Origin: a virus | Lineage: Duplodnaviria > Caudoviricetes | Strand: one strand, 5' to 3' | Length of the DNA stretch: 49,793 nucleotides | Virus record (IMG/VR): IMGVR_UViG_3300031820_000005 | Coordinates: 1 to 49,793 of that record | The notes under the pieces: model-generated | What the model saw: only the letters and a program-made list of their open reading frames with translations | What the model was told of the DNA's origin: nothing | Databases searched by the model: none | Position numbers and translations under genes: made by a program | Shown: one piece after another, positions 7,087 through 46,132 of the stretch | How positions within the stretch are numbered: position 1 is the stretch's first letter | Layout: the number at the start of each line of letters is the position of its first letter

Positions 7087-7165
7087 CCGTTGAAGAACTC
7101 TTCTGCGAACGCAACATGGTTATTCTGGCCCTGATCATCCTTGTGGCCTTCATGTGGAGCGGCCA

Positions 7166-18418: not shown

Positions 18419-18602
18419 GCTCTTCTCGGCCTTCCTTCAGGCCTTCGGCGTGCGATGCCTGCTTGACTTCCCTAACCAGCTCATCTTTCATCGAGTTGGT
18501 CGCCCTGTGGACCTGTTCAATCTTGCGGTTGTTCCAGAAGGTCAGAAGCGCCGTTGCGAACAGTAGGACCGAATTGAGCACTGGTATCCAATCACCCATC
18601 AC
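18402..18602 (-). CDS. Small membrane protein of lysis cassette
   Basis: N-terminal hydrophobic helix followed by a charged helix. Confidence 0.55.
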   Translation of the reverse strand: MMGDWIPVLNSVLLFATALLTFWNNRKIEQVHRATNSMKDELVREVKQASHAEGLKEGREEPRLSR

Positions 18603-18922
18603 CGCCTCACGAACTTGCCCTTGACGACCACCCCAGCCACCATGGGCACTGGCCGAGCACTGGAACTCAAGGCGGCCACCCCAACCGGAGCGGGAGCGGT
18701 GACCGCGGTGCAGATGGCATTAGCCACCGCCTCGGCGGTCTGGATCAACGGATCTCCAGCCCGAATGATATTCGCCACCGTGTTGATGGTCGGCTGATAG
18801 CCGCAGTAGGCCACCGCGTATTTCCGGGCCGTGGCCACAATCGTGTCAATGGTCGCCTGGGTCTGGGCCGCGCACCCACTGAGGTGGAGGGCCACTAGGG
18901 AAACTGCAAGCACCTTACGCAT
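18599..18922 (-). CDS. Lipoprotein of lysis cassette (spanin candidate)
   Basis: Signal peptide ending in lipobox LSGC. Confidence 0.7.
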   Translation of the reverse strand: MRKVLAVSLVALHLSGCAAQTQATIDTIVATARKYAVAYCGYQPTINTVANIIRAGDPLIQTAEAVANAICTAVTAPAPVGVAALSSSARPVPMVAGVVVKGKFVRR

Positions 18923-19184
18923 TGGGCACCACCTTTGGGCTGGGCTGGGCCGAAGCCGTGGCCGGGTCAGTTATGATCTTCTTCACTTCCGGCAAGGCGG
19001 CCACTGAAGCGATTCTGGCCGAGGTTCGAGCCGTCCAGTAACCCCAGATCAGCGGGCCAACCGCTGCGATGAGCCCAACCGCCATTGTGGCGAAGTCATT
19101 GCTCCACCACTTATGGGCCACTCCGAACCCCAGGGCGAACATCGCCAGCTGGCGAATTAGACTCATTACCTGATCGTAGTTCAT
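18915..19184 (-). CDS. Putative holin
   Basis: Two hydrophobic segments; adjacent to endolysin. Confidence 0.7.
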   Translation of the reverse strand: MNYDQVMSLIRQLAMFALGFGVAHKWWSNDFATMAVGLIAAVGPLIWGYWTARTSARIASVAALPEVKKIITDPATASAQPSPKVVPNA

Positions 19185-19668
19185 TGCCTTCTCCTTTCAC
19201 CATGGTTAGCGCTACTTTCTCCACGTCATTAGCACGGTTGAGCCAGCCCTTCTGGAAGTATGGATGGTGCAAGGCGCGGTAATGAGCACGAAGCTCTTCA
19301 GTGATCGTCTCGATCAGGTCATGGGCCTTGGCGTTGGTCCCCTCCCTGGCCCCAGCCTTGGCGAACAGCCTTGAGGCCTCTCCAGTGCCACAGTTCACCC
19401 CGATGTTGAACCACATTAGGTCCAGGCCCGGGGCCAGGCCCGGGCAGTGGGGTAGCCAATAGCTGATCCGGTAGATGTCCTGAATGTCATCAATCGAGGC
19501 GTGCCATACATCCAGACGTCGGCGCCCAGCAAGATCGAGATAGGCGTTGAATTCGTGCTGAGTGATCCCTCTGGAAGTGCGGCCGCCTGGGTCCCTTGGA
19601 TCATCATCGTTCCCGCCTTCCCACTTGAGGATCTCGTTTAGGCAGAAGTGGAAGTTCCTTTCAGTCAT
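19111..19668 (-). CDS. Endolysin, glycoside hydrolase family 108
   Basis: WEGG..DDPRDPGGRTSRGIT, Y...YW, FQKGWLNR. Confidence 0.9.
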   Translation of the reverse strand: MTERNFHFCLNEILKWEGGNDDDPRDPGGRTSRGITQHEFNAYLDLAGRRRLDVWHASIDDIQDIYRISYWLPHCPGLAPGLDLMWFNIGVNCGTGEASRLFAKAGAREGTNAKAHDLIETITEELRAHYRALHHPYFQKGWLNRANDVEKVALTMVKGEGNELRSGNESNSPAGDVRPGVRSGP

Positions 19669-29034: not shown

Positions 29035-31886
29035 TTTCCAGTGTCTCCAACCACGACCTCTGGGATGATTCCAAGGATTGTTCCTGGGAGCGGGTCATCG
29101 ATCTGCATGCATACTTGGCCCTGAGTGGTCCAGTTGGGATCCAAATTGATACGTTCATCGCCCGTGACTAAGGGGATAGACACTCCCATGAATACGCTTG
29201 GGCCCCGCTCCTTAATTGCCACTAGGGTCTGGAAAGTGGTCCCGGCCTTGAGCCCGCGAGTGTCTTTCAATCGCATGGTGGCCGCTGGAATCTTCTTCCT
29301 TTTGCCCTGGCTCGTTGGCTCGCCAGTGTCCAAGTAGAGGGTCTGGGCCTTCTTTGAGAAAGGCAGGCCCACCAGCACTTTCGTCACCATTGTATTGGCA
29401 GGCAACCCAAGGGAAAGGGTCCCGTTCAAGGGCACCACCTGCTGTGGCAGCACGTTCCCATCGGCAAGGATCCCAACAGTCTTTCCAGCTAAATACTGAA
29501 GCCCGCTCACCTGAGTTATCGGGGCCCAGAGGGTCCAGGTACCCGGCGCCTGGGGGATTGGGGTGTTCGAGGGATCTTCTTGGAACACACTCGTGATAGG
29601 CTGGGTGATCGTGGCCGTGACTTGGAACGGGGGGTTGACAGCAGTGATAGTCGCGATCCCACCACCAGCGCGTATAACCTGGCCCAGATTGCCAGCCGAA
29701 AATACTGGCTGGTCAGCAGTAAATAACACTCCAGATCCGCTTGCTGAGGCGGGCGTAAGATTAGCGCTGGGGGCCGATCCGACAGTGATCGCCGCTGAGT
29801 CGAGCGACCAAGCATCTTCGACCCCATAGGGCATGAGCCTTGAGGCAAACCTCTCGACATACTGTAGGAACTTACCATTAACCAATCTCTTGACGATGAC
29901 ATAGACAGCATCCTCGGAGCCCTCCGGGATCGTCGCGATTGATTGGAACAAACCGTTCGTGTAGTGCTGGGCCCACCCCTTGATTTCTTGTTCTTTCATA
30001 AAGGTCAAGCTAAGCAAGGCCCCGTCGCTTCGAATGGCCCACACTATCTTGAACGGTTCCTGGGCATAGCACCATTCCCTGATGGTGAAGCCGAAGAGCA
30101 AGTGGTTGCTCTCGATGGAGATGTCTACCCCAGTGTAGATGTTCACATAAAAATTGTAGCTCAAGTCCCTAACGGCCGCTCCCCGGGCCTGAACAAAGAG
30201 AATGTCGTAGTTAACCACCAGGGGCGGTACATCACTGCACCCGATGAAGGCTTGAGGAATGGCCTCGGCATTAGCCGGGGTGATGCCAATTGGAGCGTTG
30301 GCCGAGCCCCCGCCCGTGATCTGCCAAGCGCCATTCCCCGTGAAAGTAACGAGCCCTCCGGGCATCGCGATCATGTGCTTGATCACATTGACCTGAGTTG
30401 AGACAAGGGTCCCGGTGATCGCGTCTGAGGGCTGAACTGGATTCGAGGCGTCGAAGTTCTTAAACGCCCCAGGTTGGCCCATGTTGAAGCTAGCGGGCGT
30501 GTTGTTGGCCGCCGCATAGACCTTGCGCTGTTGGAAGAATGAGACCGTTGCGGGGTTTACTCCGGTGGACGGCCCAACCGTTGGAGTGGCGCTGGCCCCC
30601 GCAATGTTGGCAAACACGAACACTGGAGAGGAATAGTTCTGGCCCCCGTTTAGGACGATCACCCCGGCCAGGGCCCCGTTGATGACAATTGGAGAGCCCA
30701 CGAAGCCAGAGCCAGTTGGATCAGTGACCGTAACTGTGGTGGTTGGGCCCCCACCACTTCCACCAGTGATATTGATCGCCCCAGTTATCGCACTCGGAGC
30801 GAATGGGTTCAAATGCAGGGGCGGCTGAATGCTCAGGGCCGCGGTGATGTTGGAGTCGATGAACTGGAGCCCTTGGGTCGTGCCGATAAAGCCCATGCCA
30901 AGCCCGGCCACTGACCCGCTCGGGCCGCCCACGTCACCGCCACCGCTCGTGGTCAGGTTTGGCCCACTCTTATACACGTTGTAGGACACGGCCCCTGCCA
31001 CGGCGGGCCACTGGATCGTGATCGAGCCTGCAGTGCTGGCAATGTTGACCGCAGCGGTTAGGATTCCGATCTGAGAGAGCTGGCTTTCTTCGCCATTGGC
31101 ATTGACCGCGGTTACACCGTAGTAGTAGATGGCCGAGCCCGCTGATGAGGCGGTCAGGGTTGGCGCCGCATTGGGCGGCTGAATGGACGATGCGAAGACC
31201 ACTGGGCTGATGGTCCAGGCGTAATGCTGGGTTCGGGTCAGGTCCACCACCCCATATGAGGGGTGTGTTAGCGTCATTGTGTCGGCCGACTGAGCGAACT
31301 TTAGTAGGGCCAAATCACTGGCCAAGTATGGGGTCGGCAAAGTGAATTGCCTGCCAATCGTTCCACCACCAGTGTACACGCCGAAGGTTGAACTGCTCAC
31401 CACATTGCCATCGAGGTCGGTCAGGGTGATAACCGCCCCAGCCACACTGTTGACGAGGAAGAACAGCCCATTGAGCTGGACCATCCCACCAACGCCAGTA
31501 ATGAAGACTGTATCACCAACCGCGAAGTTGTTTCCTGCAACCGTTAGCTGAAGTGGAGCCGCATTGTTGGCCGCCGTGATGTTGAAGTTAGGCTCAAGAA
31601 CCGCGCCCCCATTCATGTACACCCGCATGTACTGGTTGCCGAACTCCAGAACATACGTTTGAATTACTGAGAAGGTGAACGGAATCAACCGAACCGGCAG
31701 GTCCGAGCGCTTGCAACGAGTGATGTAGGCCGTGCCCGTTCGAGTGGAGATCCCCGAGCGGTAGTCAACGAAGAAGTTCCGACAAAGGGCTAGTGCCTTA
31801 TGGTAAGTGGCGAGGTCGACCCGGGCATAAAGATTGGGCGAGATCTCTCCAGAGGAAAATGAGGGCTGGATTAGATTGACACTCAT
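29031..31886 (-). CDS. Tail tubular protein B / nozzle
   Basis: QPSFSSGEISP.L.ARVDL..Y, RLIPF.FS...YVLEFG, FFQQR; contains extra beta-rich insertions. Confidence 0.88.
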   Translation of the reverse strand: MSVNLIQPSFSSGEISPNLYARVDLATYHKALALCRNFFVDYRSGISTRTGTAYITRCKRSDLPVRLIPFTFSVIQTYVLEFGNQYMRVYMNGGAVLEPNFNITAANNAAPLQLTVAGNNFAVGDTVFITGVGGMVQLNGLFFLVNSVAGAVITLTDLDGNVVSSSTFGVYTGGGTIGRQFTLPTPYLASDLALLKFAQSADTMTLTHPSYGVVDLTRTQHYAWTISPVVFASSIQPPNAAPTLTASSAGSAIYYYGVTAVNANGEESQLSQIGILTAAVNIASTAGSITIQWPAVAGAVSYNVYKSGPNLTTSGGGDVGGPSGSVAGLGMGFIGTTQGLQFIDSNITAALSIQPPLHLNPFAPSAITGAINITGGSGGGPTTTVTVTDPTGSGFVGSPIVINGALAGVIVLNGGQNYSSPVFVFANIAGASATPTVGPSTGVNPATVSFFQQRKVYAAANNTPASFNMGQPGAFKNFDASNPVQPSDAITGTLVSTQVNVIKHMIAMPGGLVTFTGNGAWQITGGGSANAPIGITPANAEAIPQAFIGCSDVPPLVVNYDILFVQARGAAVRDLSYNFYVNIYTGVDISIESNHLLFGFTIREWCYAQEPFKIVWAIRSDGALLSLTFMKEQEIKGWAQHYTNGLFQSIATIPEGSEDAVYVIVKRLVNGKFLQYVERFASRLMPYGVEDAWSLDSAAITVGSAPSANLTPASASGSGVLFTADQPVFSAGNLGQVIRAGGGIATITAVNPPFQVTATITQPITSVFQEDPSNTPIPQAPGTWTLWAPITQVSGLQYLAGKTVGILADGNVLPQQVVPLNGTLSLGLPANTMVTKVLVGLPFSKKAQTLYLDTGEPTSQGKRKKIPAATMRLKDTRGLKAGTTFQTLVAIKERGPSVFMGVSIPLVTGDERINLDPNWTTQGQVCMQIDDPLPGTILGIIPEVVVGDTGK

Positions 31887-33538
31887 ACGGTGTAGACCCA
31901 CTCATCCACGACCACGGCGCCGGTGAAGCCACTGCCTCCAGCTTGTGCAGCGCCACCCTGGATGCTCAGTGCTCCACCACCGCCTGCACCAATGAAAGCT
32001 CCTGGATTGCCAGCGATGCTAGCAATACCAGTGCCACTATTGACTTGTTGCCGAGGTGCGCCGAGGCCTAGCCAGCCGGGTGCGCCCTGACCGGCGATGA
32101 TCGGAACGTTGTTCGTTAGGCCTATGCCAAAGGCTGCGCCGCCTGCGTTCCCCTGGCCAATCGTATCGCCAGTGCCCGAGCCAGCGGCCCCGGCTGCACC
32201 GCCAGCCACTGTCCCACCAGCCGCCGAATCGCTCACTACTCCAGAGGAGGGGCCGCCCAAGCCTCCGGGTGCTACAAGCAGAGCCCCAAGAGAAACCGTG
32301 CCACCAGTATTGCCAGTGCCCGCCGAGACACCAATGGCGGCAGCGGGTACGGTTACCACTTGGCTCGCCCCAATCTGGGCCGGGGTAAAAGTCCCTGAGG
32401 ACCAGCTACCAGAAGCGCCACCGCCACCGAAGGAGATTTGACTAGCTCCTACAGCGGCAGCGCCACCGCCAGCGCCACCCCCGCCAATGGCGATGGCCTG
32501 GACAAATGCCAAGTTGGCTTTCGGTGTGTAGGTGCCGTTGGCTAGAAAGGTGGTCCGACCGGCGTACTTAACCACCAGCCCCTTTACCCGCCAGTTGCCG
32601 GTCGCCGCTGCGTCGGTTGTGACGTAGACAAATGCGCCCGCTGGAATAGTCAGTCCCGCTCCAACCGCCTGGGTTATCCCAGCGATTTCGAACTGGTCAG
32701 CACCGTTGATGTTCAGGGTAACAGCGCCGCCGATCGGATGGAACCAAAACCCGAATCCGTCCCAATAGGTATTGGCTCGATTGAGGTTGACTGAGCCAGG
32801 GCCGGCCACCATGACCACGCTCAGATGATCAACCGAAGTGAGTGGATTGTGCCCTACGTTAACCGGGAAGTTAACATCCACTTCGCCCGCTGCTACCACC
32901 CCGCTCTGCAAGCCAAGCCCAGCTGTGCCCGTGGACAACGAGCCCAGACCCAAGGCGGTGCGGGCCAAAGCCAGAGTGGCCGAGGTCACGACCGGGATCA
33001 TAGCCGTTGATACGGTCGTGCCAGTAATGGCAATGCCCGAAGTCAGGTTGCCATTCGCGTCGAAGATGGCCTGGGAGCTGGCCCGATTAACGGCCGGGGG
33101 CAGTGGCGCTGGTGGGTTCGGGTCGCTGATCGGAACCGAGATGGCCCGACCTTGAAGCTCCGAGACCTGCTGAATGGCCATCACAGCCAAGTCAATGGCC
33201 TGTTCCACCGCCTGGGGATAGAACGCCCCTTGGGCCTGAAGGCTCGTGCCCTGGGTCAGAGGCACTTGCCTGGAGATGGTCAGGCTCGAACCCACCGGAA
33301 CCGGAGAACCGCTCAACGGGTAGGTAACCGAGCCACCGACGCCCCAGACCTGGGGCGGGGCCACGGCATTCAAGGCTACTGAGTATTGATTAGTCGGAAC
33401 AGTGGTTATATTGCCAAGGGAGTCCACCAGAGTGAGCTGGAGATCCGCCGCGGCCACCCCAATAAATGTGAACGGAAATACAGTGGTGGCCCCATTCCCT
33501 TGGAAGGTGACCTTGTTCGCAGTGCTCTGAACAGTCAT
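31883..33538 (-). CDS. Tail fibre (T7-like N-terminal anchor, Gly-rich C-terminal domain)
   Basis: GNGATTVFPFTF...LTISR.VP..Q...E.A.D; C-terminal GGGGAGGG domain; no Cys. Confidence 0.85.
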   Translation of the reverse strand: MTVQSTANKVTFQGNGATTVFPFTFIGVAAADLQLTLVDSLGNITTVPTNQYSVALNAVAPPQVWGVGGSVTYPLSGSPVPVGSSLTISRQVPLTQGTSLQAQGAFYPQAVEQAIDLAVMAIQQVSELQGRAISVPISDPNPPAPLPPAVNRASSQAIFDANGNLTSGIAITGTTVSTAMIPVVTSATLALARTALGLGSLSTGTAGLGLQSGVVAAGEVDVNFPVNVGHNPLTSVDHLSVVMVAGPGSVNLNRANTYWDGFGFWFHPIGGAVTLNINGADQFEIAGITQAVGAGLTIPAGAFVYVTTDAAATGNWRVKGLVVKYAGRTTFLANGTYTPKANLAFVQAIAIGGGGAGGGAAAVGASQISFGGGGASGSWSSGTFTPAQIGASQVVTVPAAAIGVSAGTGNTGGTVSLGALLVAPGGLGGPSSGVVSDSAAGGTVAGGAAGAAGSGTGDTIGQGNAGGAAFGIGLTNNVPIIAGQGAPGWLGLGAPRQQVNSGTGIASIAGNPGAFIGAGGGGALSIQGGAAQAGGSGFTGAVVVDEWVYTV

Positions 33539-35069: not shown

Positions 35070-35278
35070 CAGCTCTCTCCATGGTCCTTGTAGATATGCC
35101 GAGCCAAGGACTTGGTCATGCCTTTTTTCTTTTTCTTGGCCCCATACTTCCTGCCCCGATCCGCCTCGTGGAAGTCCCGGGCCACTGCTGGAGGAATGTT
35201 AGCGGCCTTGCCGGTCGGGCGCCAACCATGGGCGATCGCTGACATGGTCTTGGCCTGCTTAGGGGTCGAGCTAGGCAT
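35069..35278 (-). CDS. Small basic phage protein
   Basis: MPS...KQ..TM.A.AH...IP..VA.DF..AD pattern; GAGGTG RBS. Confidence 0.7.
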   Translation of the reverse strand: MPSSTPKQAKTMSAIAHGWRPTGKAANIPPAVARDFHEADRGRKYGAKKKKKGMTKSLARHIYKDHGES

Positions 35279-35286
35279 CGTGCACC

Positions 35287-37473
35287 TCAATAATATTCGT
35301 CGACCAGGATGAAGCCAGTGCCACCTGCACCACCAGCGTTGCCGCCTGTGCCTGCGCCCCCTGCGGTACCAGCCGCGCCCACGGTGTAGGTGTAGGTAGC
35401 TGCCGGGGAGGTGATCCGGATCTCAGCGTATTCGCCTGCCGCGCCGCCGCCGCCCCCGGTCTGGCCATTACCCGTGCCACCAGCGCCACCGCCGCCACCA
35501 GCGCAGGAGTTGGTTCCACCCGCGATGCCAGCCCCAGCCTGCTGGCCCCGCCCAGCGCCATTACCATTCCAACCCGACCCACCAGTGCCGCCAGGAGTGT
35601 TATTGGTGCCCGAACCAGTCATCGAGGGGCTGCCGTCCGAGCCCCGTTGGCGGAACGTAGCAGTGCCAGTGCCACCAGTGCCGCCTGCAGCGCCCTGGGC
35701 CGAAACCCCGGAGTTGTTCGATAGTGCCCCGCCTGAGCCACCTACCGCGTTGATGGAGTTGAACGTGGTAGTCCCGCCAGTGCCGCCTGCAGTCGCGGCC
35801 GCAGAGCCGGCCCCACCTCCACCGCCGCCAGCGCCGCACTCACGAACCACAAGCAGCCGCGGGGTGGTGGGCGAAGTTGGGGTGGTGTAGGTCGCGCCCG
35901 AGCCCGAGAGCAGCTGTTGTTGGGTCGGAAAGTTGGCCGAGCCGCCACTAGTCGTCGGCGGGCAAACCCAGGCGCCGTTCTGACGGAACGCGGTTGAACC
36001 AGTGCCTGAGCCGGTGCAAGGGGCCGTGCCTGGGGTTCCGTCAGTGAGGAATATCCGGCTTCCATTAGCAGCCGCGGTTGGCAGCGAAGCAAAAGCCAAA
36101 CCTGACCCATCCTGGATTAGCGTACTAGTTGAGGCATTTGTATAGTTCTTATTAAGTGCGAAATTTCGATAGGCGTTTGAGTCACTAATCGTTACCAAGC
36201 TAGCAGCGCTAGTAATATTGATGCCGAACGCGGTGCCAGAAGTATCTTCAAAGGCGTTCCCGGTTATTGAAACGTTCGTGACGTTATCAATATTAATACC
36301 AAAAGCGGAAGACGACGTAGCGTTGTCGAGAAAGCTATTGCCATCAATAGCGACATCCAAGAGCCACAGTGGCGTACTGGATGCGGTTATTTTGATTCCG
36401 CTAACTCCAGAGTTCGCCGCCATGTTAAATTGGTTACTTATTATATTAGCAAACCTAAATTGGCCTGCGGCAGGGGTTTGAGTAGTTAGTAACACTCCAG
36501 CATTGGCTATGTTATCAAAAGAATTGCCATCAATAAGTAAGATGCTAGTGAAGGCGCCGGAGGCTAAATTTAGCTCATAACCATCCCAAGATGCATTGAA
36601 CTTGTTATTCAGAATCCGAAGCCCGCCACTACTCTCCTGATAGATATTGATATTGCCCGAGTTAGCCGTTGCCGCCTGTTGGAATTGGCAATGGCTAATT
36701 GTTCCATCGCCGTGATCAACATTGGTAAGATTGCGAACGATAATAGATTTTTCAAGAATATTGATAAACTTACTATCTAGAACGGTCCATGAGGCAGCAC
36801 GTTCGAAATCAAGGCCTTCCCACAGACCAATAAAACGAAGGCCAATAAACTTGCTTTCCAAATTCTGAAACGTCGCGCCAGGGTCAACCTTAATTCCAGC
36901 TCCAGCCGTTTGGGTACCAAGTGCAGTGATGCCAAAGTTGTAGAAATAGACTGGGTTCTGACTGGTGATTAGGAACCCATTTTGAGTAGTATTACCAAGA
37001 GCTATTGTGGACTGGACATGGCCGTACCCAATTATTGTGATTGGAGCACTAATTGTCAAAGCGGAAGTTATCTTACAACCAGCAACGCTCTCTTGGATTA
37101 AGAGCGGAACATTACCCGAGATCGCCTGATTTATTGCATTCTGAAGATGAGTCGTATCATCAGTTGACCCATCACACACCGCTCCAAAATCGGCCGTATT
37201 GATACTTTGAGAAAGCTTAGCCCCAACAGTTAACGATACCGCGCCAGTGCCTTGCTGTGTAAAGGTTACGCTAGAGCTAAGAAGCGGGTTAAAGCCTGGA
37301 TCGCTAGAGGGCCCATTTGACTGTAGTACATTTCCACTGGACCCAGGCGCAGCCGAGCCCCAGCCGACCGCTCCAGGGCCTTCGCCAATTGGGATCGAAT
37401 GGGCCGGGATGTCCTGGGCGTTAGCCACTGAAAGGCAAGAAAGTAGCCAAAAGGCAAGAATCAATTTCTTCAT
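35287..37473 (-). CDS. Tailspike-like beta-helix (pectate-lyase-like) protein with Gly-rich C-terminus and N-terminal signal peptide
   Basis: DFGAVCDGSTDDT..LQ.AIN, repeated I..N.F coils; starts MKKLILAFWLLSCLSVANA-Q. Confidence 0.82.
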   Translation of the reverse strand: MKKLILAFWLLSCLSVANAQDIPAHSIPIGEGPGAVGWGSAAPGSSGNVLQSNGPSSDPGFNPLLSSSVTFTQQGTGAVSLTVGAKLSQSINTADFGAVCDGSTDDTTHLQNAINQAISGNVPLLIQESVAGCKITSALTISAPITIIGYGHVQSTIALGNTTQNGFLITSQNPVYFYNFGITALGTQTAGAGIKVDPGATFQNLESKFIGLRFIGLWEGLDFERAASWTVLDSKFINILEKSIIVRNLTNVDHGDGTISHCQFQQAATANSGNINIYQESSGGLRILNNKFNASWDGYELNLASGAFTSILLIDGNSFDNIANAGVLLTTQTPAAGQFRFANIISNQFNMAANSGVSGIKITASSTPLWLLDVAIDGNSFLDNATSSSAFGINIDNVTNVSITGNAFEDTSGTAFGINITSAASLVTISDSNAYRNFALNKNYTNASTSTLIQDGSGLAFASLPTAAANGSRIFLTDGTPGTAPCTGSGTGSTAFRQNGAWVCPPTTSGGSANFPTQQQLLSGSGATYTTPTSPTTPRLLVVRECGAGGGGGGAGSAAATAGGTGGTTTFNSINAVGGSGGALSNNSGVSAQGAAGGTGGTGTATFRQRGSDGSPSMTGSGTNNTPGGTGGSGWNGNGAGRGQQAGAGIAGGTNSCAGGGGGAGGTGNGQTGGGGGAAGEYAEIRITSPAATYTYTVGAAGTAGGAGTGGNAGGAGGTGFILVDEYY

Positions 37474-37832
37474 AGATAACCAAGCTCCTTAGAGCGCTCA
37501 TGTAGCAATCGGTGATATGCTTGATCAGGACACACGACCAGATTTCCAGGGCGATTATTCCAAGGTTTTGCATCCACATGGTGAACAACTGCACCATAAG
37601 GCAGCGGCTTGCCAAGCGCTTCTTCGGCTAACCAAATGTGCTCGTACACTCTTTCGCCAAGATGAGTAAATCTAGCATAGCCTGAACTAGTGTAGGATAC
37701 CGAGCCATGCGGTGACTTATATTTAGCTGGGGCTGCTAACACATTACCCCTACGTCGAAGATTATCATAATGCTTTTGGCACAGGCACTTCGCCATAGCA
37801 ATCCTATCACAATCTTCTACTGAACATCTCAT
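37470..37832 (-). CDS. HNH homing endonuclease
   Basis: CSVEDC...LCQKHY Zn finger; EH...VVHHVD...NN...NL...H...H; AT-rich. Confidence 0.88.
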   Translation of the reverse strand: MRCSVEDCDRIAMAKCLCQKHYDNLRRRGNVLAAPAKYKSPHGSVSYTSSGYARFTHLGERVYEHIWLAEEALGKPLPYGAVVHHVDAKPWNNRPGNLVVCPDQAYHRLLHERSKELGYL

Positions 37833-38278
37833 CCTGAGAACCACCCTGAAAGATCCGGCATCGGGTATAATCTCAGAAGCTGACGAGCCTGGATGATCTT
37901 GAACGGCGTGGCAACAAGCGCATCGATTGTGTCCGGTCCAAAGGGCTGGATGGTGATGTTGTTGGCCGGGGCATTCCCGGTCATGTCTTTGATCCAGAGC
38001 GAGAGCTCAAGGGACCCCAGCATCATTTGGGGGTGGGTCTTGATTGATTGTTGAACCCACTCAGTAACTGAGGGCAGGTTAATGGTCAGTGGGGCGGCCA
38101 GGGTCGTGACCAGGAGCCCATAGTCGCCAATGCCAACCGTCACAGGTGAGGCCGCTGAAGAGACCTTCCTCGCAGGCTGGACCGGGAGGTGAACCCAGCC
38201 AATGGTCGGGCCTAAGTAGGTCCGAACCCATTGAACAGCCCCTCCCGATTGGTCCAGCTGGGGAATAAGAGCGCCCAT
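37829..38278 (-). CDS. Putative fibre/decoration structural protein
   Basis: TINLP...IKD..G.A..NNITI...TID beta module; no signal peptide. Confidence 0.55.
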   Translation of the reverse strand: MGALIPQLDQSGGAVQWVRTYLGPTIGWVHLPVQPARKVSSAASPVTVGIGDYGLLVTTLAAPLTINLPSVTEWVQQSIKTHPQMMLGSLELSLWIKDMTGNAPANNITIQPFGPDTIDALVATPFKIIQARQLLRLYPMPDLSGWFSG

Positions 38279-38799
38279 CAGGGCCTCATGTCAGTGGCAC
38301 GACCCTTGTAGACAGTGCCAGAGTACTGGGCGAAGAAGGGATCACCCTTCAGGGCGTTGGCCACTGCCACTGCCACTGCGGCGGCGAACTCTGGGGTGCC
38401 GACCTTCTGTTCGTATTGTGGCACTTCACCCATCGTCAGGGGCAGGGAGTCTAGCGCTTGCATCACCGAGCGGGGCTTGTGCTTGGCCATAAGGGCCTCG
38501 GCCTCATCGTCGAGGGGCTCCATCTCAGTGGAAGGGATGAAACTCTCCGGGCTTCGGATCACCCAGTCCTTGCGATGCGGCTTGGTGTTGATGACACAGC
38601 ACATGTCTTCGCCCAACGACTCGTCCTGAGGCATGCCCTTCCCATTGTAGTTACAATCCGAGGGGTCATCAGGATTGAGATAACGGTTGCAATCCCACTT
38701 CTCGGTGGCGGGCTTGCCAAAGTTCGTGACGAGCTTCTGCTCATAGAAGCTGCCCATGAGATTCAGCTCATGAGCGGCCAAGAGTTTAAATCGAGCCAT
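38278..38799 (-). CDS. Hypothetical late protein
   Basis: AAGGAG RBS before ATG 38799. Confidence 0.7.
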   Translation of the reverse strand: MARFKLLAAHELNLMGSFYEQKLVTNFGKPATEKWDCNRYLNPDDPSDCNYNGKGMPQDESLGEDMCCVINTKPHRKDWVIRSPESFIPSTEMEPLDDEAEALMAKHKPRSVMQALDSLPLTMGEVPQYEQKVGTPEFAAAVAVAVANALKGDPFFAQYSGTVYKGRATDMRP

Positions 38800-38810
38800 A
38801 GGAGGTCTCC

Positions 38811-39335
38811 TTACTGTTGATAGCCCCAAGCATTGACATCAGTGGCCCCACCAACCCCCGCAGCAGCCGAGGTCACAGTAATGCCGGCATTCTGTGTCGA
38901 GGCAGGGATACATGGGTTGAAGGCCTTATCGAGTTGGCCTACTGCCGGGGTCACGGCCACTGGCTGGATGAAACTCATTGAACCGCTAACCACGCCGCTG
39001 ATAGTGGCCGTGCCACCCAGGCCCACCGTGGCGTTTGAGCCGATGGAGAAGCCACAAAGGAAGGTGGTTTTGCCACTAGTGCCAGCCAAAGTAGCGGCCG
39101 TTGCCCCTGTAGTTCCAGTCGCCGAAGCCGTAAGTGGGCTCGCACCTGCAGGGTAAGGGGCGACTAAGGCCACAGGCACTGGATTGGCAGTTGTGCAAGG
39201 TACGGCCTGATTCGAGCCGTTGTTGCACATCTCCATCGAGCCGTTGACATACGACCCATTGGGAGTAATGAAGTTGGACTGCCCAAGAGCAGGCCCTCCA
39301 ATCAGTAGGGCTAGAAGTAGGAGGAGCGCTCTCAT
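38811..39335 (-). CDS. Signal-peptide-bearing beta-rich protein (paralogue A)
   Basis: MRALLLLLALLIGGPALG-Q; four Cys in mature part. Confidence 0.75.
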   Translation of the reverse strand: MRALLLLLALLIGGPALGQSNFITPNGSYVNGSMEMCNNGSNQAVPCTTANPVPVALVAPYPAGASPLTASATGTTGATAATLAGTSGKTTFLCGFSIGSNATVGLGGTATISGVVSGSMSFIQPVAVTPAVGQLDKAFNPCIPASTQNAGITVTSAAAGVGGATDVNAWGYQQ

Positions 39336-39889
39336 AGTTGGAACCCATTCGCTGTGACAGCCGTGTTGGTGGTGCCGGCGCCCAAAGTGGCGGCCACCGG
39401 GATTGTAGTGTTCACCGCGCTAGCCGGCACGCAGGGGGAGAAAGTGACAATAGTCGGAACTTGATTGTTGTTCGCAATTGCCACTTGAGCGGCCACATAG
39501 TTTAGGCTTCCAGAGATAGTGTTGGTAGCCTGAATAGTTCCGTTGCCAGCTGCAGTGGCGCCACTATAGGTGGCTTGGAACCCACACAAGTAGGTAGTTT
39601 TCCCTGCTGCTGCTGGAAGCGTTGCAGTGGCCGTAGTTGTGCCTGTGGCCGAGTTGGTGACTGGAGTAGCCCCGGTGGGAAACCCAGCCGCACCTGCAGC
39701 CCCGGGCGAGAGGATCAGCCGGCCAAGGCTATCGCACTGGACCCATCCAGGAAACCCTGTGGTAAGGGTCGTAGGAGCCGAGTTGAAGGCACAGAGGGTG
39801 CCCACAATCTGGGTGGGCTGGTTCTGCTGCTGGGCCCGGGCCGGTCCCAAGCAAAGCAGGAGTACAAGGACTAGCCAAAGCCTTCGCAT
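39332..39889 (-). CDS. Signal-peptide-bearing beta-rich protein (paralogue B)
   Basis: MRRLWLVLVLLLCLGPARA-Q; four Cys in mature part. Confidence 0.75.
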   Translation of the reverse strand: MRRLWLVLVLLLCLGPARAQQQNQPTQIVGTLCAFNSAPTTLTTGFPGWVQCDSLGRLILSPGAAGAAGFPTGATPVTNSATGTTTATATLPAAAGKTTYLCGFQATYSGATAAGNGTIQATNTISGSLNYVAAQVAIANNNQVPTIVTFSPCVPASAVNTTIPVAATLGAGTTNTAVTANGFQL

Positions 39890-39891
39890 CT

Positions 39892-40026
39892 TCACTTCCT
39901 CTTTGAGGGGCCGGACTTGCTCTTAACCGGGGCGCTCTTCGAGGTCGAAGCCGCGGCTACGTCAGTGGCCTGGATGATGGTGGCCGAAGCCACCACCAAT
40001 GCCAGAAGTAAGGCGAGTTTTTTCAT
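39892..40026 (-). CDS. 44-aa signal-peptide-like protein with basic tail (absent from ORF track)
   Basis: MKKLALLLALVVASATIIQATDVAAASTSKSAPVKSKSGPSKRK; ATGA overlap upstream; fills the gap exactly. Confidence 0.6.
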   Translation of the reverse strand: MKKLALLLALVVASATIIQATDVAAASTSKSAPVKSKSGPSKRK

Positions 40027-40694
40027 GGCTCTTCGGCCCACTCCAGATCGATGTCAAGGAAGTCGGTGGTGGCAGGGGCAACAACGCCATTTGCTGAGGC
40101 GTTGAAGTTGACCGCCACCACATCAGTGGCGCCCCTCAACACAGTCATCTGGTCGTCATTGACTCCGTAGGTGAACGAGCAGACATCCGGCACGTTGAAG
40201 GTTGTAGCGGTCTGGGCCAGCAGGATCCGGCAGGAGTCGAGGGTGCCGGTCAGAGTGCCGCCAGTGGGCACCGCAGCGAAGAAGGTAGTGACAGTCGCCG
40301 CTGGAGTGCCATTGTTGATGTCCCTGGCCACGATAGTGGGGGTGGCTGGGGTGCCGCCCGTGTCGACCGCCGAGCGTCGGAGAATGTTAACGCCCCGATA
40401 GGTCTGGGCGGCTGAGTTCTGGCCGCCAACCACGATCTTGGAGATCCTAATCGTCTTCGAAGCCGAGCCCGCGATGGTCAGGTAGTCGCCCGCGCCACCC
40501 GCGGTCGGGGCGGTGCCCAAGATCGAGACCTTGAACGTTTTGAGCCGCGACTCGATACCGGCCTGGAGCCAAACCGCGTTCGGCTGAGGAACGGTATTGA
40601 TCCCGGGCTGGCTGGTCTGACTCAGCGCGATGCCGACCCAGGCGATAGCCAGGGCAGAGACTGCCCCAGCTACAAGTGTGGTAAACTTCTTCAT
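40023..40694 (-). CDS. Signal-peptide-bearing beta-rich protein
   Basis: MKKFTTLVAGAVSALAIAWVGIALS-Q; two Cys; GAGG RBS. Confidence 0.75.
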   Translation of the reverse strand: MKKFTTLVAGAVSALAIAWVGIALSQTSQPGINTVPQPNAVWLQAGIESRLKTFKVSILGTAPTAGGAGDYLTIAGSASKTIRISKIVVGGQNSAAQTYRGVNILRRSAVDTGGTPATPTIVARDINNGTPAATVTTFFAAVPTGGTLTGTLDSCRILLAQTATTFNVPDVCSFTYGVNDDQMTVLRGATDVVAVNFNASANGVVAPATTDFLDIDLEWAEEP

Positions 40695-40703
40695 CGTTTT
40701 ACC

Positions 40704-41243
40704 TCAATTCGGGATGCTGATGCCCGGGGGATAGCCAGAGCCCACGGCCCCGGTCGTGCTCATGATCTGGCTCCAGCGGTCGAGCACGATGTAGCTGGAG
40801 AAGGTTCCGCCAGTGAAGGCAGCGGTGGCCACCCGGTACTGGAGCTTCACGAACCGGGGAGTGGGCGAGCCCGCAGGGACCTCCGGCCAGTCGATGTCGA
40901 AGAGGTTCACCCCCGCAATGAGAGTGGCCAGGGCATAAACCGGGCTCAAAGCGAAGTCGGTGAAGGCCCCTGGGGTGTTGTTGCCCGCATCAGGGGCGCC
41001 CATGAAGGCGAGCTGAAGCGTTGGGGCGCCGCCCGAAGTGAAGGTGGTCAAGACCGTGGTCAAGATCTTCGGCACGGCTGGGGCATCGGCAATGCCCATG
41101 TCCCTGGCCCCGCCCCCGCCAACTGCAGAGACAGGCAGGCCGCCAACCAGGCCAACGTCCAGGATGTTGCTCGAATCGGTGTTGCCGATGCCGAAGGCAT
41201 TGGTCCGAGCCAGGTCGAAGGTAAGGAGGTTGTCAAGAATCAT
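40704..41243 (-). CDS. Capsid cement/decoration protein (BPP-1 Bbp16-like)
   Basis: MILD..L.F...S.N.LD...RD.G...F.S.G..TL...RF..L.Y.V; follows the major capsid gene. Confidence 0.78.
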   Translation of the reverse strand: MILDNLLTFDLARTNAFGIGNTDSSNILDVGLVGGLPVSAVGGGGARDMGIADAPAVPKILTTVLTTFTSGGAPTLQLAFMGAPDAGNNTPGAFTDFALSPVYALATLIAGVNLFDIDWPEVPAGSPTPRFVKLQYRVATAAFTGGTFSSYIVLDRWSQIMSTTGAVGSGYPPGISIPN

Positions 41244-41255
41244 CTCAGGGCTCCC

Positions 41256-42299
41256 TTAGGTGATCCGGGCTTCGTTGTTCAGGATGGCGTCACAAGTCCT
41301 GACCGGGATCCCTCGGAAGGTGGTGATGACCTTGCCATTGAACTCCTCGAGTCGGAGAAGGACGTTGGCCTTGTTCATCGCTTGGAGGTCCAGGTACGTG
41401 CGGATGACGCGGTTGCAGTAGATGACCACCTGGCCCATGTTGGCCTTGATCTCGGGGGTGTCCGAGGTCTGGATGGCCGTGGCTCCAGAGGGGGCGGTCG
41501 GCAAGCGGTAGAGGGCCCGAACCAGGAGATTGATCAAGTTCGCAGCGCTCACACCGGTCAAGAGGCTGGTGTCGATGTTGCAGATCCGGCCGAAGTATCG
41601 CCAGTCACGAAGGCAGAACCCGATCTCCCACTTGAAGTGATCCCTGTAGGCCTGATAGGTATTGCCATTCGCGTCGGCCACGGGCCACTCGCCCATGTCA
41701 CGGTGCTGCAGGCCGGTGATCTTGCCCTTCGGGAAGATTGCATGGCCCGTGTCGGCGCCCCAAGTGGCGATCCAGATGCTCGTGTTGACGGCAGCGAGGC
41801 CGCCAGCGTCGAGCACGTTGAACGCGGTTTGGCTAGTGGCAGTGTTGACCGTGGCATAGCGGGGGGCAAACCCACTGAAGCGCTCAGGATTGACCTGCTG
41901 GTTGCCATAGATCAGGGTGGCGGCCACCTGCTGCGACATGCCTTCAAGGAAGGCCTTGACTTCCGAGAGTCGGAACTCCGGAGTGTTGCCGTTCAGATCC
42001 GCGATGTCCTTGTCGATAACCGCGTAGGTTTCCAGGTTACCGCAGGTGTCGGTCAACTGAGCGGTGGTCGACTTCGCGTTCGGCACGCCTTGGTTCAACA
42101 GGCGCCAAGTTGCCTGAGGGAGGCCGGTGCGAACGGTCGTCTTGTGCCCGGTGGGCAGGTTGCCTTCGAGAACAAACATGTCCTCGAGGATCTCATTCGT
42201 CTGGCTGAGCAACTCGATGATCGCGGCGATGTGATAGTCGTCCTCGACCCGTCTTGCCCAGTCGGCATACGTAAGGGCGGTTGCGCCAATGATAGCCAC
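41256..42299 (-). CDS. Major capsid protein (BPP-1-like HK97 fold)
   Basis: IIELLSQTNEILED...EGN.PTGH.T..RTGLP..TWR..N.GV...DWRY..RI.NID...F.GIPVR..DAI.N.EA. Confidence 0.92.
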   Translation of the reverse strand: MAIIGATALTYADWARRVEDDYHIAAIIELLSQTNEILEDMFVLEGNLPTGHKTTVRTGLPQATWRLLNQGVPNAKSTTAQLTDTCGNLETYAVIDKDIADLNGNTPEFRLSEVKAFLEGMSQQVAATLIYGNQQVNPERFSGFAPRYATVNTATSQTAFNVLDAGGLAAVNTSIWIATWGADTGHAIFPKGKITGLQHRDMGEWPVADANGNTYQAYRDHFKWEIGFCLRDWRYFGRICNIDTSLLTGVSAANLINLLVRALYRLPTAPSGATAIQTSDTPEIKANMGQVVIYCNRVIRTYLDLQAMNKANVLLRLEEFNGKVITTFRGIPVRTCDAILNNEARIT

Positions 42300-42302
42300 T
42301 GG

Positions 42303-43043
42303 TTAGGTTCCTTTGTTGACGAGGTGTGGGTACATGGCCGCCGCAATCGATTGGGGAGCGCTCTTTGACGGGGTCGTACCCTTGACGTGTTGGCCCTCGG
42401 TCATCTTCGCCGCCATCCACATGAACATCTTCACAACTCCGGGGTGATTGCCCGCCCCAGTGAGGTTCAGACCTTCCTTAGCGGCGCCGGCCATCTCCAC
42501 GGGCATCATCGCGTAGATTTTGCCCAGGTTGGCTATGTTCTGACTGAGCTTGGTGCCACCCACATCGGGGTCGTCCCTAAGAGCCTCCTGCCATTCCTCC
42601 TGCGTGTCTTGCCAGTGCTGCATCTGCCCTTCAGAGATGTCTTTCAACGCAGCAGTGTGAAAGTCAACGAGCTTCTGGGCCGTTTCCTGGGAGAGGTTGC
42701 TCTCCTTGGCAAACGTCTGGAAGTCGCCTAGGGCCTTCTCGTCCAGAGTTACCCCCTCTGGAAGGGTAAAGGGTTCATATTTCTCAGGGGCCCCCTCAGA
42801 AGCATCCCCTTCCTTAGGAGGGGTCTCGCCCGCGGCTAGGGACGGTTGTGGAGTACGGCCAGTACCAGCACCAGTATTGTCAGTGCCAGGAGTAGTCCCA
42901 GTGCCGGCTCTAGTGGCATCAGTCTGCCCTGTTCCCTGGGTCGACTGGGGGGTCGTCGTCCCCGGGCCGCCACCCTGATTCCCACCGCTGGCGCCGGAAC
43001 TCCCGGTCCCACTGCCGCTGCTGCTCGTATTGGGCGCGTTCAT
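42303..43043 (-). CDS. Capsid scaffolding/assembly protein
   Basis: Low-complexity N-terminus, APEKYE...LSQE.AQKLVD...G.GNHP...AMYP; upstream of the major capsid gene. Confidence 0.8.
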   Translation of the reverse strand: MNAPNTSSSGSGTGSSGASGGNQGGGPGTTTPQSTQGTGQTDATRAGTGTTPGTDNTGAGTGRTPQPSLAAGETPPKEGDASEGAPEKYEPFTLPEGVTLDEKALGDFQTFAKESNLSQETAQKLVDFHTAALKDISEGQMQHWQDTQEEWQEALRDDPDVGGTKLSQNIANLGKIYAMMPVEMAGAAKEGLNLTGAGNHPGVVKMFMWMAAKMTEGQHVKGTTPSKSAPQSIAAAMYPHLVNKGT

Positions 43044-43326
43044 TTGCTTCCCTCATCATTAGGAGATACATTTGTTCATCAGCGGCCATCACTTGGGCCC
43101 AGATCATTCGCCCCAGGCTAGCCCGGCCACAGTTGAAGGCAGTGGCGTAGGGGTCCACAACGAAGGGCTCGCCAAAGACCTGGGCGGCCACAAGCACGTC
43201 GTAGATGACTTCCCGGCCGCCTCCAGAGGACATGATGGCCCGCCAGTGGTCGTTCTTCAGGGCCGCGGCCAGTTGCTGGGCCTTGTCCTCTTGCTCGGCC
43301 TCCTGGCGGTCGAAGTCCTCTGTCAT
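42919..43326 (-). CDS. Conserved head-module protein (Bbp19-like)
   Basis: MS..GGR....L...TAFN.GR..G; between portal and scaffold. Confidence 0.7.
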   Translation of the reverse strand: MTEDFDRQEAEQEDKAQQLAAALKNDHWRAIMSSGGGREVIYDVLVAAQVFGEPFVVDPYATAFNCGRASLGRMIWAQVMAADEQMYLLMMREANERAQYEQQRQWDREFRRQRWESGWRPGDDDPPVDPGNRAD

Positions 43327-45149
43327 TGCTGCCCCATCACGGCCTGGAGAGCGTTCTTGCCGCCACCGATGTCGGCCCCAGCCAGATTCTTCGCCCCTTG
43401 AGCGGCCGCCATTGCGTTCTGCATCTGCTGTTGTTGCTGGGCCTGCTTCTGGCGCTGGGCCCTGATCTGGACCAGCTCCGCGGGTAGCCGGATGATGTCT
43501 GGGTCGACGCCAAAGCCAATGGCGAGCTTGGCCACCGCCTTGTCGATGTCGATGTTGTCCATGACCTGTGGGTCTTCGCCCATGATTGAGCCCAGGGTCT
43601 GTAGCATCCGCTCGATGCCCCCCGCCTTGTTGGCGCGAATGGCCTCGTGGAGCATTGAGTCGAACATCACCTCAACGGGCTGGCCCTGGATTGAGGCCGG
43701 GGCGGGCGGGAAGAGGCCGGCTCGCATTGCGATGTTGTAGACACGGGTCACCGCGGGCATTAGGAATTCTTTGTCGAACCGGGTCAGGACCTCCCCGATC
43801 AAGACCATCTGCTCGCCCCTTCGGGCGTCGATTTCGGTGGCCGAGATGTTGCTCTTGGGCTCGAACTGGGAGATCATCTTCATCAGGCCAGTGAAGAAGA
43901 TGTCTTTGATCCGGGCTCGGACCTCGGCTAGGTCTTCGACCATGCCCCTGATGTCGGGCATCACCGTGTAGACGGGGGCCATGCCCACGCCTTTGCCCGC
44001 TGACATCCCCACTACGTAGGTGATGCCCCCTGGGAGGAGCGAAGCGGGTTGGTTCTTCAGCTGGGCATCGGCAACGAGGGGCGGGTTGACCTGCTTGTCA
44101 ATCCCTTGGGCCTTTCGCCTAGACTCCTGCTGGAGTTGCTTAACATCCGTAAGAGAGTCCATGCCCGGGCCACGACCGTAGGCGTCGTTAGATACAGTAC
44201 TCCACCGTGGACAACCTCCTGGAAATTCATGAAATCCTTGCTGGCGCAGGATGAACTGTTGACCTTGGCCCCACTCCCAATAGACTTCTCTCCACTTGAA
44301 ATGCCGTGGCACTGAATAGCCACGGCGATCGTCATTGGGCTCAATCGCATGGGCGATCAACTTCTCCCGATGGAGCGAGCCCTGGCCCGTGTCGTAGAGG
44401 CCCTGAACGCTTGGTGAGCAATTGTCGTAGCCGAACTCCTCAACGATCTGTTTGATTGTGAGAACGAACTCTCGGTAGACCGTGTCGACTTCGTAGTTGG
44501 AATTAACCGCGAAGTAGAACTCGCCGAGGCACGGGTTGACACAGGTGATGACGTTCTCGTAGTCTTCATAGATCAGGCAGCAGGCGCTGCCGAAGATCAC
44601 GATGTCGAAGTAGACGGTGGCGCAGCTAGTGTAGAAGTTGCTCTGGCTGAAGATCAGCATCAGGATGCGGATGACTTCAGCGAGCCAGCGGCCTTCTTCG
44701 GTGGGCGTGTCGTTGTTGTGGTAGCCGACCTTCATCTTGAGCCACTGGCGGGTCGGGTTGGTGATCCCGCCGTGGAGGCCAGCGCTAAGGTCCCGGGCCG
44801 CGATGGTGCCGGTGGAGTCGATGATGTGCTGGTTGATCGGGGAGCCGCGAGTGGCCTGGTTGGGGGTAATGAGCCACTTGTATCGGCGGGGGAGGAGGAA
44901 GTCCGCGAGTTCGCGCCAGTGGACCCACCAAGAGTAGCGGTCGGTCCGCAAGCCCATCAGGCGGCCGTCGGTGTGCCTGCGGAGTTCCACATTTCGAGGG
45001 TCGCCAAGGTTCCTCGGGCGCTTGCGAACCTGGGCTTCAGTCACCCTTCGGCCCTGCCGGAACTCTGGCCCAGAGATCTTAGGGGCGCCGCTCTTTCGAG
45101 TGGGTGAGGGTTGGGCCCCGAACTGTTGGGCGGCAGGACTTGAGGGCAT
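43323..45149 (-). CDS. Portal (head-tail connector) protein
   Basis: W...W.ELA.F.LP...DSTG...L.AG...G.T.P...W; PRW.....AYGRGP; SATE...R..E. Confidence 0.92.
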   Translation of the reverse strand: MPSSPAAQQFGAQPSPTRKSGAPKISGPEFRQGRRVTEAQVRKRPRNLGDPRNVELRRHTDGRLMGLRTDRYSWWVHWRELADFLLPRRYKWLITPNQATRGSPINQHIIDSTGTIAARDLSAGLHGGITNPTRQWLKMKVGYHNNDTPTEEGRWLAEVIRILMLIFSQSNFYTSCATVYFDIVIFGSACCLIYEDYENVITCVNPCLGEFYFAVNSNYEVDTVYREFVLTIKQIVEEFGYDNCSPSVQGLYDTGQGSLHREKLIAHAIEPNDDRRGYSVPRHFKWREVYWEWGQGQQFILRQQGFHEFPGGCPRWSTVSNDAYGRGPGMDSLTDVKQLQQESRRKAQGIDKQVNPPLVADAQLKNQPASLLPGGITYVVGMSAGKGVGMAPVYTVMPDIRGMVEDLAEVRARIKDIFFTGLMKMISQFEPKSNISATEIDARRGEQMVLIGEVLTRFDKEFLMPAVTRVYNIAMRAGLFPPAPASIQGQPVEVMFDSMLHEAIRANKAGGIERMLQTLGSIMGEDPQVMDNIDIDKAVAKLAIGFGVDPDIIRLPAELVQIRAQRQKQAQQQQQMQNAMAAAQGAKNLAGADIGGGKNALQAVMGQQ

Positions 45150-45484
45150 CAGCCGGCGACCTTAATGATGGACGAGGTGTCGACCGGAGCCGCGGCCTCA
45201 GAGGCCATCCAGCCGGCTTCAAGCTTTGTGGCGGCCACTCGAGTGGCGGTGGCCACAATCGCCTGGGCAGGCCCGGTGGGCACACAGAGCATCTCGGCAC
45301 AAGAACCAGTACGAGCCAAGCCCACGAACACCCCGGCCACGAGTTCGCCCCGCTCGACCATGGTCAGGACCTTGCGCAGGGCTCTCACTAGGCTGACATT
45401 GACTTCAGCCGCCTGAACGGTCTTGCCCAACTCAAGGGCCCGACGGACTTCTTCAATCGAGGTCTGGGTCATGTCATTGTCCAA
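45149..45484 (-). CDS. Hypothetical protein
   Basis: TGATG coupling to the portal gene. Confidence 0.6.
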   Translation of the reverse strand: MDNDMTQTSIEEVRRALELGKTVQAAEVNVSLVRALRKVLTMVERGELVAGVFVGLARTGSCAEMLCVPTGPAQAIVATATRVAATKLEAGWMASEAAAPVDTSSIIKVAG

Positions 45485-45674
45485 TCAGGGTCTTTTGGGA
45501 AGTGTTGGCCTTGCCTTGGGCGCCCATGCCCGAGGTCATGATCGTGCCCCCAAAGCCGCCCTGATTACGCGAAGCCGCCTGCTTGCCCGCCTGGGCGATT
45601 GAAGGGTCGGCGAACTGGGGCGGGTTCGCCGGGGGCGGGGGCATTTGTGGGGCCTGAGGGGTGCCGAAGCTCAT
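45474..45674 (-). CDS. Small virion protein upstream of portal
   Basis: Pro-rich N-terminus; G..GTI.TS..G...KTLIG ending typical of this position. Confidence 0.7.
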   Translation of the reverse strand: MSFGTPQAPQMPPPPANPPQFADPSIAQAGKQAASRNQGGFGGTIMTSGMGAQGKANTSQKTLIGQ

Positions 45675-45676
45675 GC

Positions 45677-46132
45677 TTAGATCCCCGGGCAGAAGTAGTT
45701 GACCTTGTTCGAGGAGGTCGCGGTCTGGACCAGGGTGATGGCGGTGACCGTGGTGGTCCAGTTCTGGGCGGCCAAGGGGGTGCCCTGCCAGACCACGAGG
45801 CAGCTAGGCACGGTCGGGTACGGGTTCGCGAAGGTGATCACGCAGCCGGTTGGAGTGCCGGTGCCCATGGTCACGGTCCCGGCCATGTCGGTGCCGACCA
45901 CTACAGGGGCGGTGCCGCAGGCGGTTAGGACTGGGGGCGGGGAGGTTCCGACCGGGAAGTGCAGGTGCTTGAAGGAGAAGTCGACCCCGATGAAGCCGGT
46001 TGGGTCTTGGGAGAGCTGAACCGACCGGGTGACCTGTTGGGCCCACGAGTCGGGCAAGACTAGCCGGCCCAAGAGCATGAGCATAAACACGGCAAGGACC
46101 AAGCAAAGGACGCGAAGGATTCTGGCAAGCAT
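45677..46132 (-). CDS. Signal-peptide-bearing beta-rich protein between terminase and portal
   Basis: ATG 46132 immediately after the TerL stop; MLARILRVLCLVLAVFMLMLLGRLVLPDSWA-QQ; four Cys in mature part. Confidence 0.7.
   Translation of the reverse strand: MLARILRVLCLVLAVFMLMLLGRLVLPDSWAQQVTRSVQLSQDPTGFIGVDFSFKHLHFPVGTSPPPVLTACGTAPVVVGTDMAGTVTMGTGTPTGCVITFANPYPTVPSCLVVWQGTPLAAQNWTTTVTAITLVQTATSSNKVNYFCPGI

Follow-up and report, generated by a model that had tools for sequence, protein, structure and literature searches.

Sec-Type Leaders on Spike and Jelly-Roll Proteins of an Uncultured Podophage Clade and a Possible Two-Compartment Route of Virion Assembly

Results

The virus record IMGVR_UViG_3300031820_000005, all 49,793 bases of which were analyzed (hereafter the window), is a 49.8-kb epsilon15/BPP-1-like podophage with a late operon on its minus-strand arm, from ~47700 down to 18600. 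It makes up an entire assembly of a single contig; the only sequencing run found to contain it bears the label soil metagenome and may be where it came from. A preliminary description had pointed to six late open reading frames (ORFs), among them a tailspike gene, that begin with Sec-type signal peptides (leaders), and had proposed that the products are exported, oxidatively folded, and may then join virions. The observation is real and conserved: on sequence evidence, a large group of uncultured podophages has a clade-wide system that exports proteins of fibre, spike, and decoration type. Export and oxidative folding emerged strongly supported, by cysteine (Cys) parity and by co-variation of leader and Cys within families; virion joining gained specific support from anchor fusions and from anchor types that match spike N-termini, and is still something we infer. 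The six ORFs, with lengths in amino acids (aa), are:

45677..46132, minus strand: exported 151-aa beta protein, family f8; leader to residue 31, Gln at +1, four mature Cys
40023..40694, minus strand: exported single jelly-roll protein, family f11, directly after the cement gene; two mature Cys
39892..40026, minus strand: 44-aa ORF with a leader-like N-terminus and a short Ser/Lys tail; no Gln, no Cys
39332..39889, minus strand: exported jelly-roll protein, YQ family; Gln at +1, four mature Cys
38811..39335, minus strand: second, paralogous YQ-family exported protein, clustering with 39332; four mature Cys
35287..37473, minus strand: exported 728-aa tailspike; leader 1–19, Gln at +1, fibre-shaft segment, beta-helix-type body, Gly-rich C-terminal part; seven mature Cys

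Leaders and Cysteines in the Window

All six ORFs lie on the minus strand at the positions first described, and each leader combines a basic N-region (+1 to +3) with a hydrophobic core of 10 residues (mean Kyte-Doolittle hydropathy, KD, 2.5–3.5) and a small-residue cleavage site. None of the six contains a Tat motif, a lipobox, or a second transmembrane segment (maximum KD19 1.5). The mature Cys counts given earlier (4, 2, 4, 4, and 7) are correct, as is the statement that the cement protein (40704–41243) and the anchored fibre (31883–33538) have neither leader nor Cys. Gln follows the likely cleavage site in five of the six and is invariant in the alignments for 45677 (24/24) and 40023 (22/22). 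The exact sites in 40023 and 38811 rest on conservation, because the heuristic cut falls two residues earlier.

Leader calls were made with our own heuristic rather than SignalP, based on charge, a 10-residue hydrophobic core, and small residues at −3/−1. It passed 16 of 773 antisense ORFs (∼2%) and, among 73 late genes of the cultured relatives SR18, BPP-1, phiV10, and Carin1, a single one, which encodes a scaffold protein; it also overlooks real leaders, e.g., three of nine heuristic negatives in one homologue set. None of 81 major capsid protein (MCP), 74 cement, 65 portal, or 39 terminase genes passed. The leaders could in principle be wrong starts or chance hydrophobic N-termini on ordinary cytoplasmic virion parts. 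Internal start codons are indeed present in five of the six ORFs, and a weak point is 45677, where six precede residue 30; its relatives nevertheless begin with a leader (41/41). Given that homologues of 40023 and 39332 also keep the leader (111/120 and 85/120, respectively), that Cys parity follows the leaders, that start codons overlap upstream stops, and that the false-call rate is so low, we regard an artefact as hardly credible.

Export Signature Across the Clade

Relatives were drawn from 433 IMG/VR stretches, the best 80 of which (81–84%) were taken as loci for clade counts, with genes called by our own gene caller, which skips some genes. Leaders were found in 191 of the 1072 genes called in these 80 loci. 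Where at least 2 kb of sequence follows the MCP gene, as in 49 loci, every locus carries one to seven leader genes, and the gene after cement bears a leader in 55 of 62 cases; leaders are absent from the MCP, scaffold, cement, portal, terminase, and adaptor families. Sorted by Cys number, the 164 distinct exported proteins comprise 143 with even non-zero counts, six odd, and 15 with none, vs. 186 even and 200 odd among leaderless genes of at least 100 aa. With one member per family the split is 44 even to 3 odd for exported and 29 to 17 for leaderless proteins. Disulfides form in the periplasm, and even Cys counts are what disulfide pairing yields, which supports export followed by oxidative folding; leaderless members of exported families are mostly without the Cys.

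Gln occupies +1 in 118 (strict site) to 142 (relaxed site) of the 164 exported proteins, against a Gln background of 3.5%, and this preference, behind small residues at −1/−3, fits cleavage. The N-termini might instead be uncleaved or slowly cleaved inner-membrane anchors, leaving tethered, periplasm-facing fibres to be collected by particles at the membrane or with membrane patches. That the heuristic leaves the cut in 40023 and 38811 uncertain, and that cleavage here is predicted, would suit such a tether; the hydrophobic cores are short, however, and a docking motif that starts exactly at the Gln (see below) again fits cleavage, so we consider tethering improbable.

Two loci encode a leader-bearing 238-aa protein (L007:1222-1938 and L025:4422-5138) that, as we presume, resembles an outer-membrane beta-barrel of Alphaproteobacteria, and it may be both a host clue and an exclusion gene.

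Anchor Gene and Exported Spike

Two genes stand immediately upstream of the spike:

37829..38278, minus strand: leaderless, Cys-free fibre-anchor protein, family f18; 39 fusions, model possibly like the T4 gp9/10 N-terminal domain
37470..37844, minus strand: HNH endonuclease gene between anchor and spike (PF13392, E 2.5e-10)

The window spike matches phrog_2234 (tail spike, E 2e-5) and phrog_8280 (E 2e-3), as well as annotated tail spikes and fibres; these weak PHROG and tblastn matches place a beta-helix/pectate-lyase-like body in it. The body also matches the fused leaderless spikes P0308 (E 2e-9) and P0123. An N-terminal virion-binding domain of its own was not found in the window spike, the leader starting the protein and the anchor domain being a separate gene. 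The anchor role proposed for 37829–38278 is new here, the preliminary description having left this gene out.

We counted the neighbors of f18 over all fetched loci, defining the spike pattern as Q-C-x-G with Q1, C2, and G4 fixed. Among 63 distinct copies, six lie at a contig end, 49 are followed by a leader-bearing Q-C-x-G spike, one by another exported gene, five by a leaderless gene, and two are fused. Thus 49 of the 57 anchors with a known neighbor precede an exported QCxG spike, mostly with a 4-base overlap. Positions left free by the pattern are nearly invariant in these spikes (C12 in 49/49, F6 and G13 each in 48/49). The MCP-picked set is unbiased towards f18, and there f18 precedes every one of the 13 QCxGxF spikes. 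A second motif marks 12 spikes in this set, 11 of them preceded by another small gene without a leader (f17/f61). The docking motif begins exactly at +1, which suggests that the end exposed by processing contributes to the interface.

A profile search with f18 over 1.84 billion representatives gave 1071 matches; among the best 150, 39 proteins of 421–1067 aa start with the anchor domain, fused to fibre or spike bodies. These fusions include no leaders, and their Cys content (0.59%; 14 even, 22 odd, 3 zero) differs from that of 45 split spikes (2.15%; 40 even, 5 odd; Fisher 3e-6, with non-independent rows). Fused bodies are matched by 23 of the 45 split spikes. PF12708 (pectate-lyase), Collar, Gly_rich_2, or S74 domains occur in 12 of the 39 fusions. 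A shaft motif right behind the anchor is Cys-free in 13 of 13 fusions; of 13 exported versions, 10 have two Cys in it. The Atlas model of the anchor may resemble the T4 gp9/10 N-terminal domain (model-to-model TM 0.59/0.72), and 22 of 45 relatives match the baseplate protein phrog_20556; no PDB sequence matched the anchor.

The window anchor is a divergent subtype, shared with locus L085 (45% identity), whose spike start resembles that of the window (18/40 identical). At the same anchor-spike junction another small gene intervenes in L022 (6506-6937) and L156 (one contig); together with the HNH gene of the window, this raises the possibility that the junction is a homing target.

Small Exported Proteins

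Relatives of f8 combine a leader with even Cys in 41 of 41 cases. The f8 C-terminal domain recurs at the end of an exported spike of 511 aa in a relative (L011:7099-8634, E 7e-7), so the 45677 product is likely a short fibre or tip domain; it matched no Pfam or PDB family. In relatives f8 usually stands after the cement gene, and in the window it lies between terminase and portal-region genes. For f11, 111 of the best 120 of 335 homologues have a leader, 110 of those with even Cys, and there are six true leaderless forms. The 40023 product is a candidate decoration or cement-like protein. It is without the family's usual Cys pair and has a different one (residues 155 and 172), possibly a compensatory disulfide. 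The 44-aa ORF, a weak point in that it had no relative in the fetched loci, is possibly a remnant.

The YQ family exists in both states. Among the best 120 of 337 homologues of 39332, all 85 with a leader have at least two Cys, vs. seven of the 35 without; a quick tree of 119 sequences needs six changes of leader label, at least two of them forced by strong branches. The slot between cement and adaptor is filled by a leaderless YQ protein in L169 and L187 and by a leader-bearing one in L168, L172, and L198. Because one virion-module slot can thus be filled by a cytoplasmic or an exported form, the target would most simply be on the virion. In L169, a leaderless 689-aa protein (5793-7862) and the leaderless YQ protein (7896-8381) have a common N-terminal arm, a candidate cytoplasmic docking motif that leader plus Cys motif would replace in exported forms. 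Leader-bearing YQ proteins also occur in loci that have no marker of the window's clade (25 of 42). They were seen in virion modules of L173, L177, L207, L208, and L221, where matches to clade markers are weak or missing, which argues that export extends to other phage lineages.

These results bear on the possibility that export and disulfide bonding take place but the proteins never reach the virion, acting in the periplasm or outside the cell in clearing of capsule or extracellular polysaccharide (EPS), in receptor masking against superinfection, or as free decoys. Export does keep them apart from capsid assembly, the spike body is polysaccharide-lyase-like, and passages of PMC10367356 interpret five Q-rule leader genes of P. 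gingivalis phages, to which no function is assigned, as modifying the host surface. Left unexplained would be a cytoplasmic anchor whose gene overlaps the spike gene translationally and whose type goes with the spike's N-terminal motif, fusions in which the anchor domain heads leaderless fibres, and leaderless YQ and f11 orthologues in virion modules; we therefore rate this alternative unlikely, although it is the most serious of those considered.

The exported f11 and YQ-family proteins match a single jelly-roll fold, and these jelly rolls weakly match tip domains of the MAT proteins of Bdellovibrio, phage-like trimeric fibres with signal peptides according to the sections of PMC10769870 consulted. 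One could accordingly picture phage-borne surface adhesins of an infected or lysogenic host. The six ORFs show no lipobox, transmembrane anchor, or outer-membrane barrel, their genes sit within the late virion operon, and an integrase match was found in none of the 29 early ORFs scanned, all of which makes such adhesins very improbable.

Virion Module and Other Genes of the Window

The late operon runs through terminase, portal (PF12236), Bbp19, scaffold/protease, gp7-type MCP, Bbp16-like cement, adaptor, anchored fibre, nozzle, internal proteins, endolysin, and holin. Virion genes place the window with epsilon15 and BPP-1 (PF20911, PF21190 weakly, PF25181, and PF12236), and short-tail adaptor, nozzle, and internal virion proteins are matched by phrog_394, phrog_376, phrog_308, and phrog_418. 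MCP identity to cultured relatives is only 46–54%. The cement-family profile matches the post-capsid genes of BPP-1, phiV10, Carin1, and SR18. Further features are:

41256..42299, minus strand: MCP, epsilon15 gp7 type (PF20911, E 6e-131); no leader
40704..41243, minus strand: Bbp16-like cement protein (PF21190, E 9e-4, under the curated cutoff); no leader, no Cys
38278..38799, minus strand: conserved leaderless protein, family f4, within the exported block; 42 loci, no leaders
31883..33538, minus strand: ordinary anchored tail fibre (phrog_1640 tail protein, E 5e-24); no leader, no Cys; internal control
18599..19668, minus strand: lysis cassette of GH108 endolysin without leader, holin, and a spanin-like lipobox protein (PF05838, PF23987, lipobox)

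The f4 protein weakly matches phiV10 p12 (epsilon15 gp9-like, E 5e-5). The lysis cassette, in which the lipobox protein would be the spanin, indicates ordinary lysis of a diderm host. Small His/Gly/Lys-rich leaderless genes at 34326–35290, between spike and adaptor, are kept in relatives (f12, f13, f15, f19). The internal virion proteins at 26014–28113 (699 aa; weak peptidase M15/endolysin matches) and 19665–26030 (2120 aa) contain zero Cys. A family A DNA polymerase at 14136–17244 is divided into two ORFs (14136–15182 and 15748–17244) with a 189-aa ORF between them.

Discussion

Proposed Assembly Route

Late in infection, the tailspike and four small beta proteins would pass through Sec. We consider it very probable that the leader proteins are exported, and about as probable, from the sites and Cys patterns, that signal peptidase I cleaves them and that folding depends on Dsb: the cut would expose the Gln, putatively capped as pyroglutamate, and oxidation would follow in the host periplasm. 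In the cytoplasm, anchors would be incorporated into heads or tails; the particles would encounter and bind the mature spikes and jelly-roll proteins either when the inner membrane is opened by the holin or once released. The spike would dock likely via the leaderless anchor protein encoded just upstream, and the jelly-roll proteins would serve in capsid decoration. Anchor-spike binding and incorporation into the virion are likely, with less assurance than export, and the model as a whole, namely that spikes and jelly-roll decorations fold in the periplasm and attach to virions at lysis, we judge probable. The gain would be disulfide-stabilised adhesins that a reducing cytoplasm cannot fold.

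Several points weigh against this model. The f7 proteins are often Cys-free despite their leader (18/49), so that disulfides cannot be the sole reason for export, and the Cys count of the window spike is odd. The jelly-roll matches are at a level that the tool rates as common (Z mostly <8). A leaderless gene follows 5 of the 57 anchors. The window spike is without the Cys-stapled motif and is separated from its anchor by the HNH gene, and the pairing of anchor and spike motif in the window rests on two genomes (the window and L085). Retention of an ordinary anchored fibre suggests that the exported set may be dispensable for infection. Leader calls rest on our own heuristic, and counts across related genomes are non-independent. 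The clade has no cultured member, being known here from its genes, and INPHARED contained no match to any of the four small-protein or anchor queries tried.

By the accepted view, assembly of a tailed phage takes place entirely in the cytoplasm, and the scheme proposed here departs from that textbook build. If the scheme is true, spikes routed through Sec and Dsb and attached at lysis would be a new assembly route, infectivity would be tied to host envelope enzymes, and many "hypothetical secreted" genes of soil viromes would be explained. Put more broadly, we lean somewhat towards the view that a widespread tailed-phage lineage builds its virion in two compartments, with heads and anchors made in the cytoplasm and swappable, disulfide-stapled, pyroglutamate-capped spikes and decorations made in the periplasm; these would attach at lysis via short N-terminal docking peptides matched to anchor types, making receptor-binding gear exchangeable between released particles. 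The anchor and its 13-residue motif amount to a compact interaction open to direct test, and they may also serve as a plug-in handle by which disulfide-rich proteins could be displayed on phage particles.

Comparison With Known Systems

In the open-access literature searched, we found no description of Sec-exported virion parts of tailed phages. The MAT fibres of Bdellovibrio are cellular adhesins that have a domain of ∼130 aa in common behind the leader, whereas the window proteins are viral, encoded in a late operon, and accompanied by a separate cytoplasmic anchor; locus sets the two apart. Disulfides stabilise virion parts in disulfide-linked virions such as those of Agrobacterium phage Milano and Q-beta, as described in the parts consulted of PMC10811340 and PMC13576161 (see also PMC10491603). 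There, core virion subunits are crosslinked, oxidised by the environment in Q-beta, in contrast to the window, where Cys are confined to leader-bearing accessory parts; the term "signal peptide" is absent from the portion of PMC13576161 consulted.

Gln at +1 in most substrates is the feature of the Q-rule, which was defined for Bacteroidetes; the main text of PMC5837995, as far as consulted, mentions neither Alphaproteobacteria nor Acidobacteria. Bacteroidota occurs among none of the metagenome-assembled genome (MAG) labels on close relatives. In Cellulophaga phage phi18:3, gp085–087, annotated in GenBank as structural by tandem mass spectrometry (MS/MS), pass the leader test and have Gln after the leader, unlike the other nine MS-annotated proteins tested in that stretch; we found no publication on these leaders in the open-access literature. 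They offer a precedent for leader-bearing virion parts in a phage that otherwise differs from the window in its Bacteroidota host, virion type, and Cys (0–3, no pairing pattern).

Filamentous phage pIII and pVIII are virion proteins with Sec leaders, and the disulfides of pIII form in the periplasm; both are membrane-anchored and assembled during extrusion without lysis. The window phage, by contrast, has a packaged head, a holin, and an endolysin. Its closest cultured counterparts, epsilon15/phiV10 (Uetakevirus), BPP-1 (Rauchvirus), and Carin1, have the same MCP, Bbp16 cement, Bbp19, portal, adaptor, nozzle, and gene order; according to a GenBank note, the gene two places after cement in Carin1 encodes a head-spike base. 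Their late genes, however, are without leaders (the one false call in 73 aside), and the exported families and anchors are unmatched there.

Classical P22-type podophage tailspikes and fibres bear an N-terminal virion-binding domain, and P22 tailspikes are added last and bind finished heads in vitro. The window spike and its relatives are alike in their beta-helix-type body and fibre-shaft motifs, and the fused relatives have exactly this anchor-plus-body plan. The exported forms differ in that anchor and body are separate genes, the body carrying a leader, Gln at +1, and ∼3.6-fold more Cys, in even numbers.

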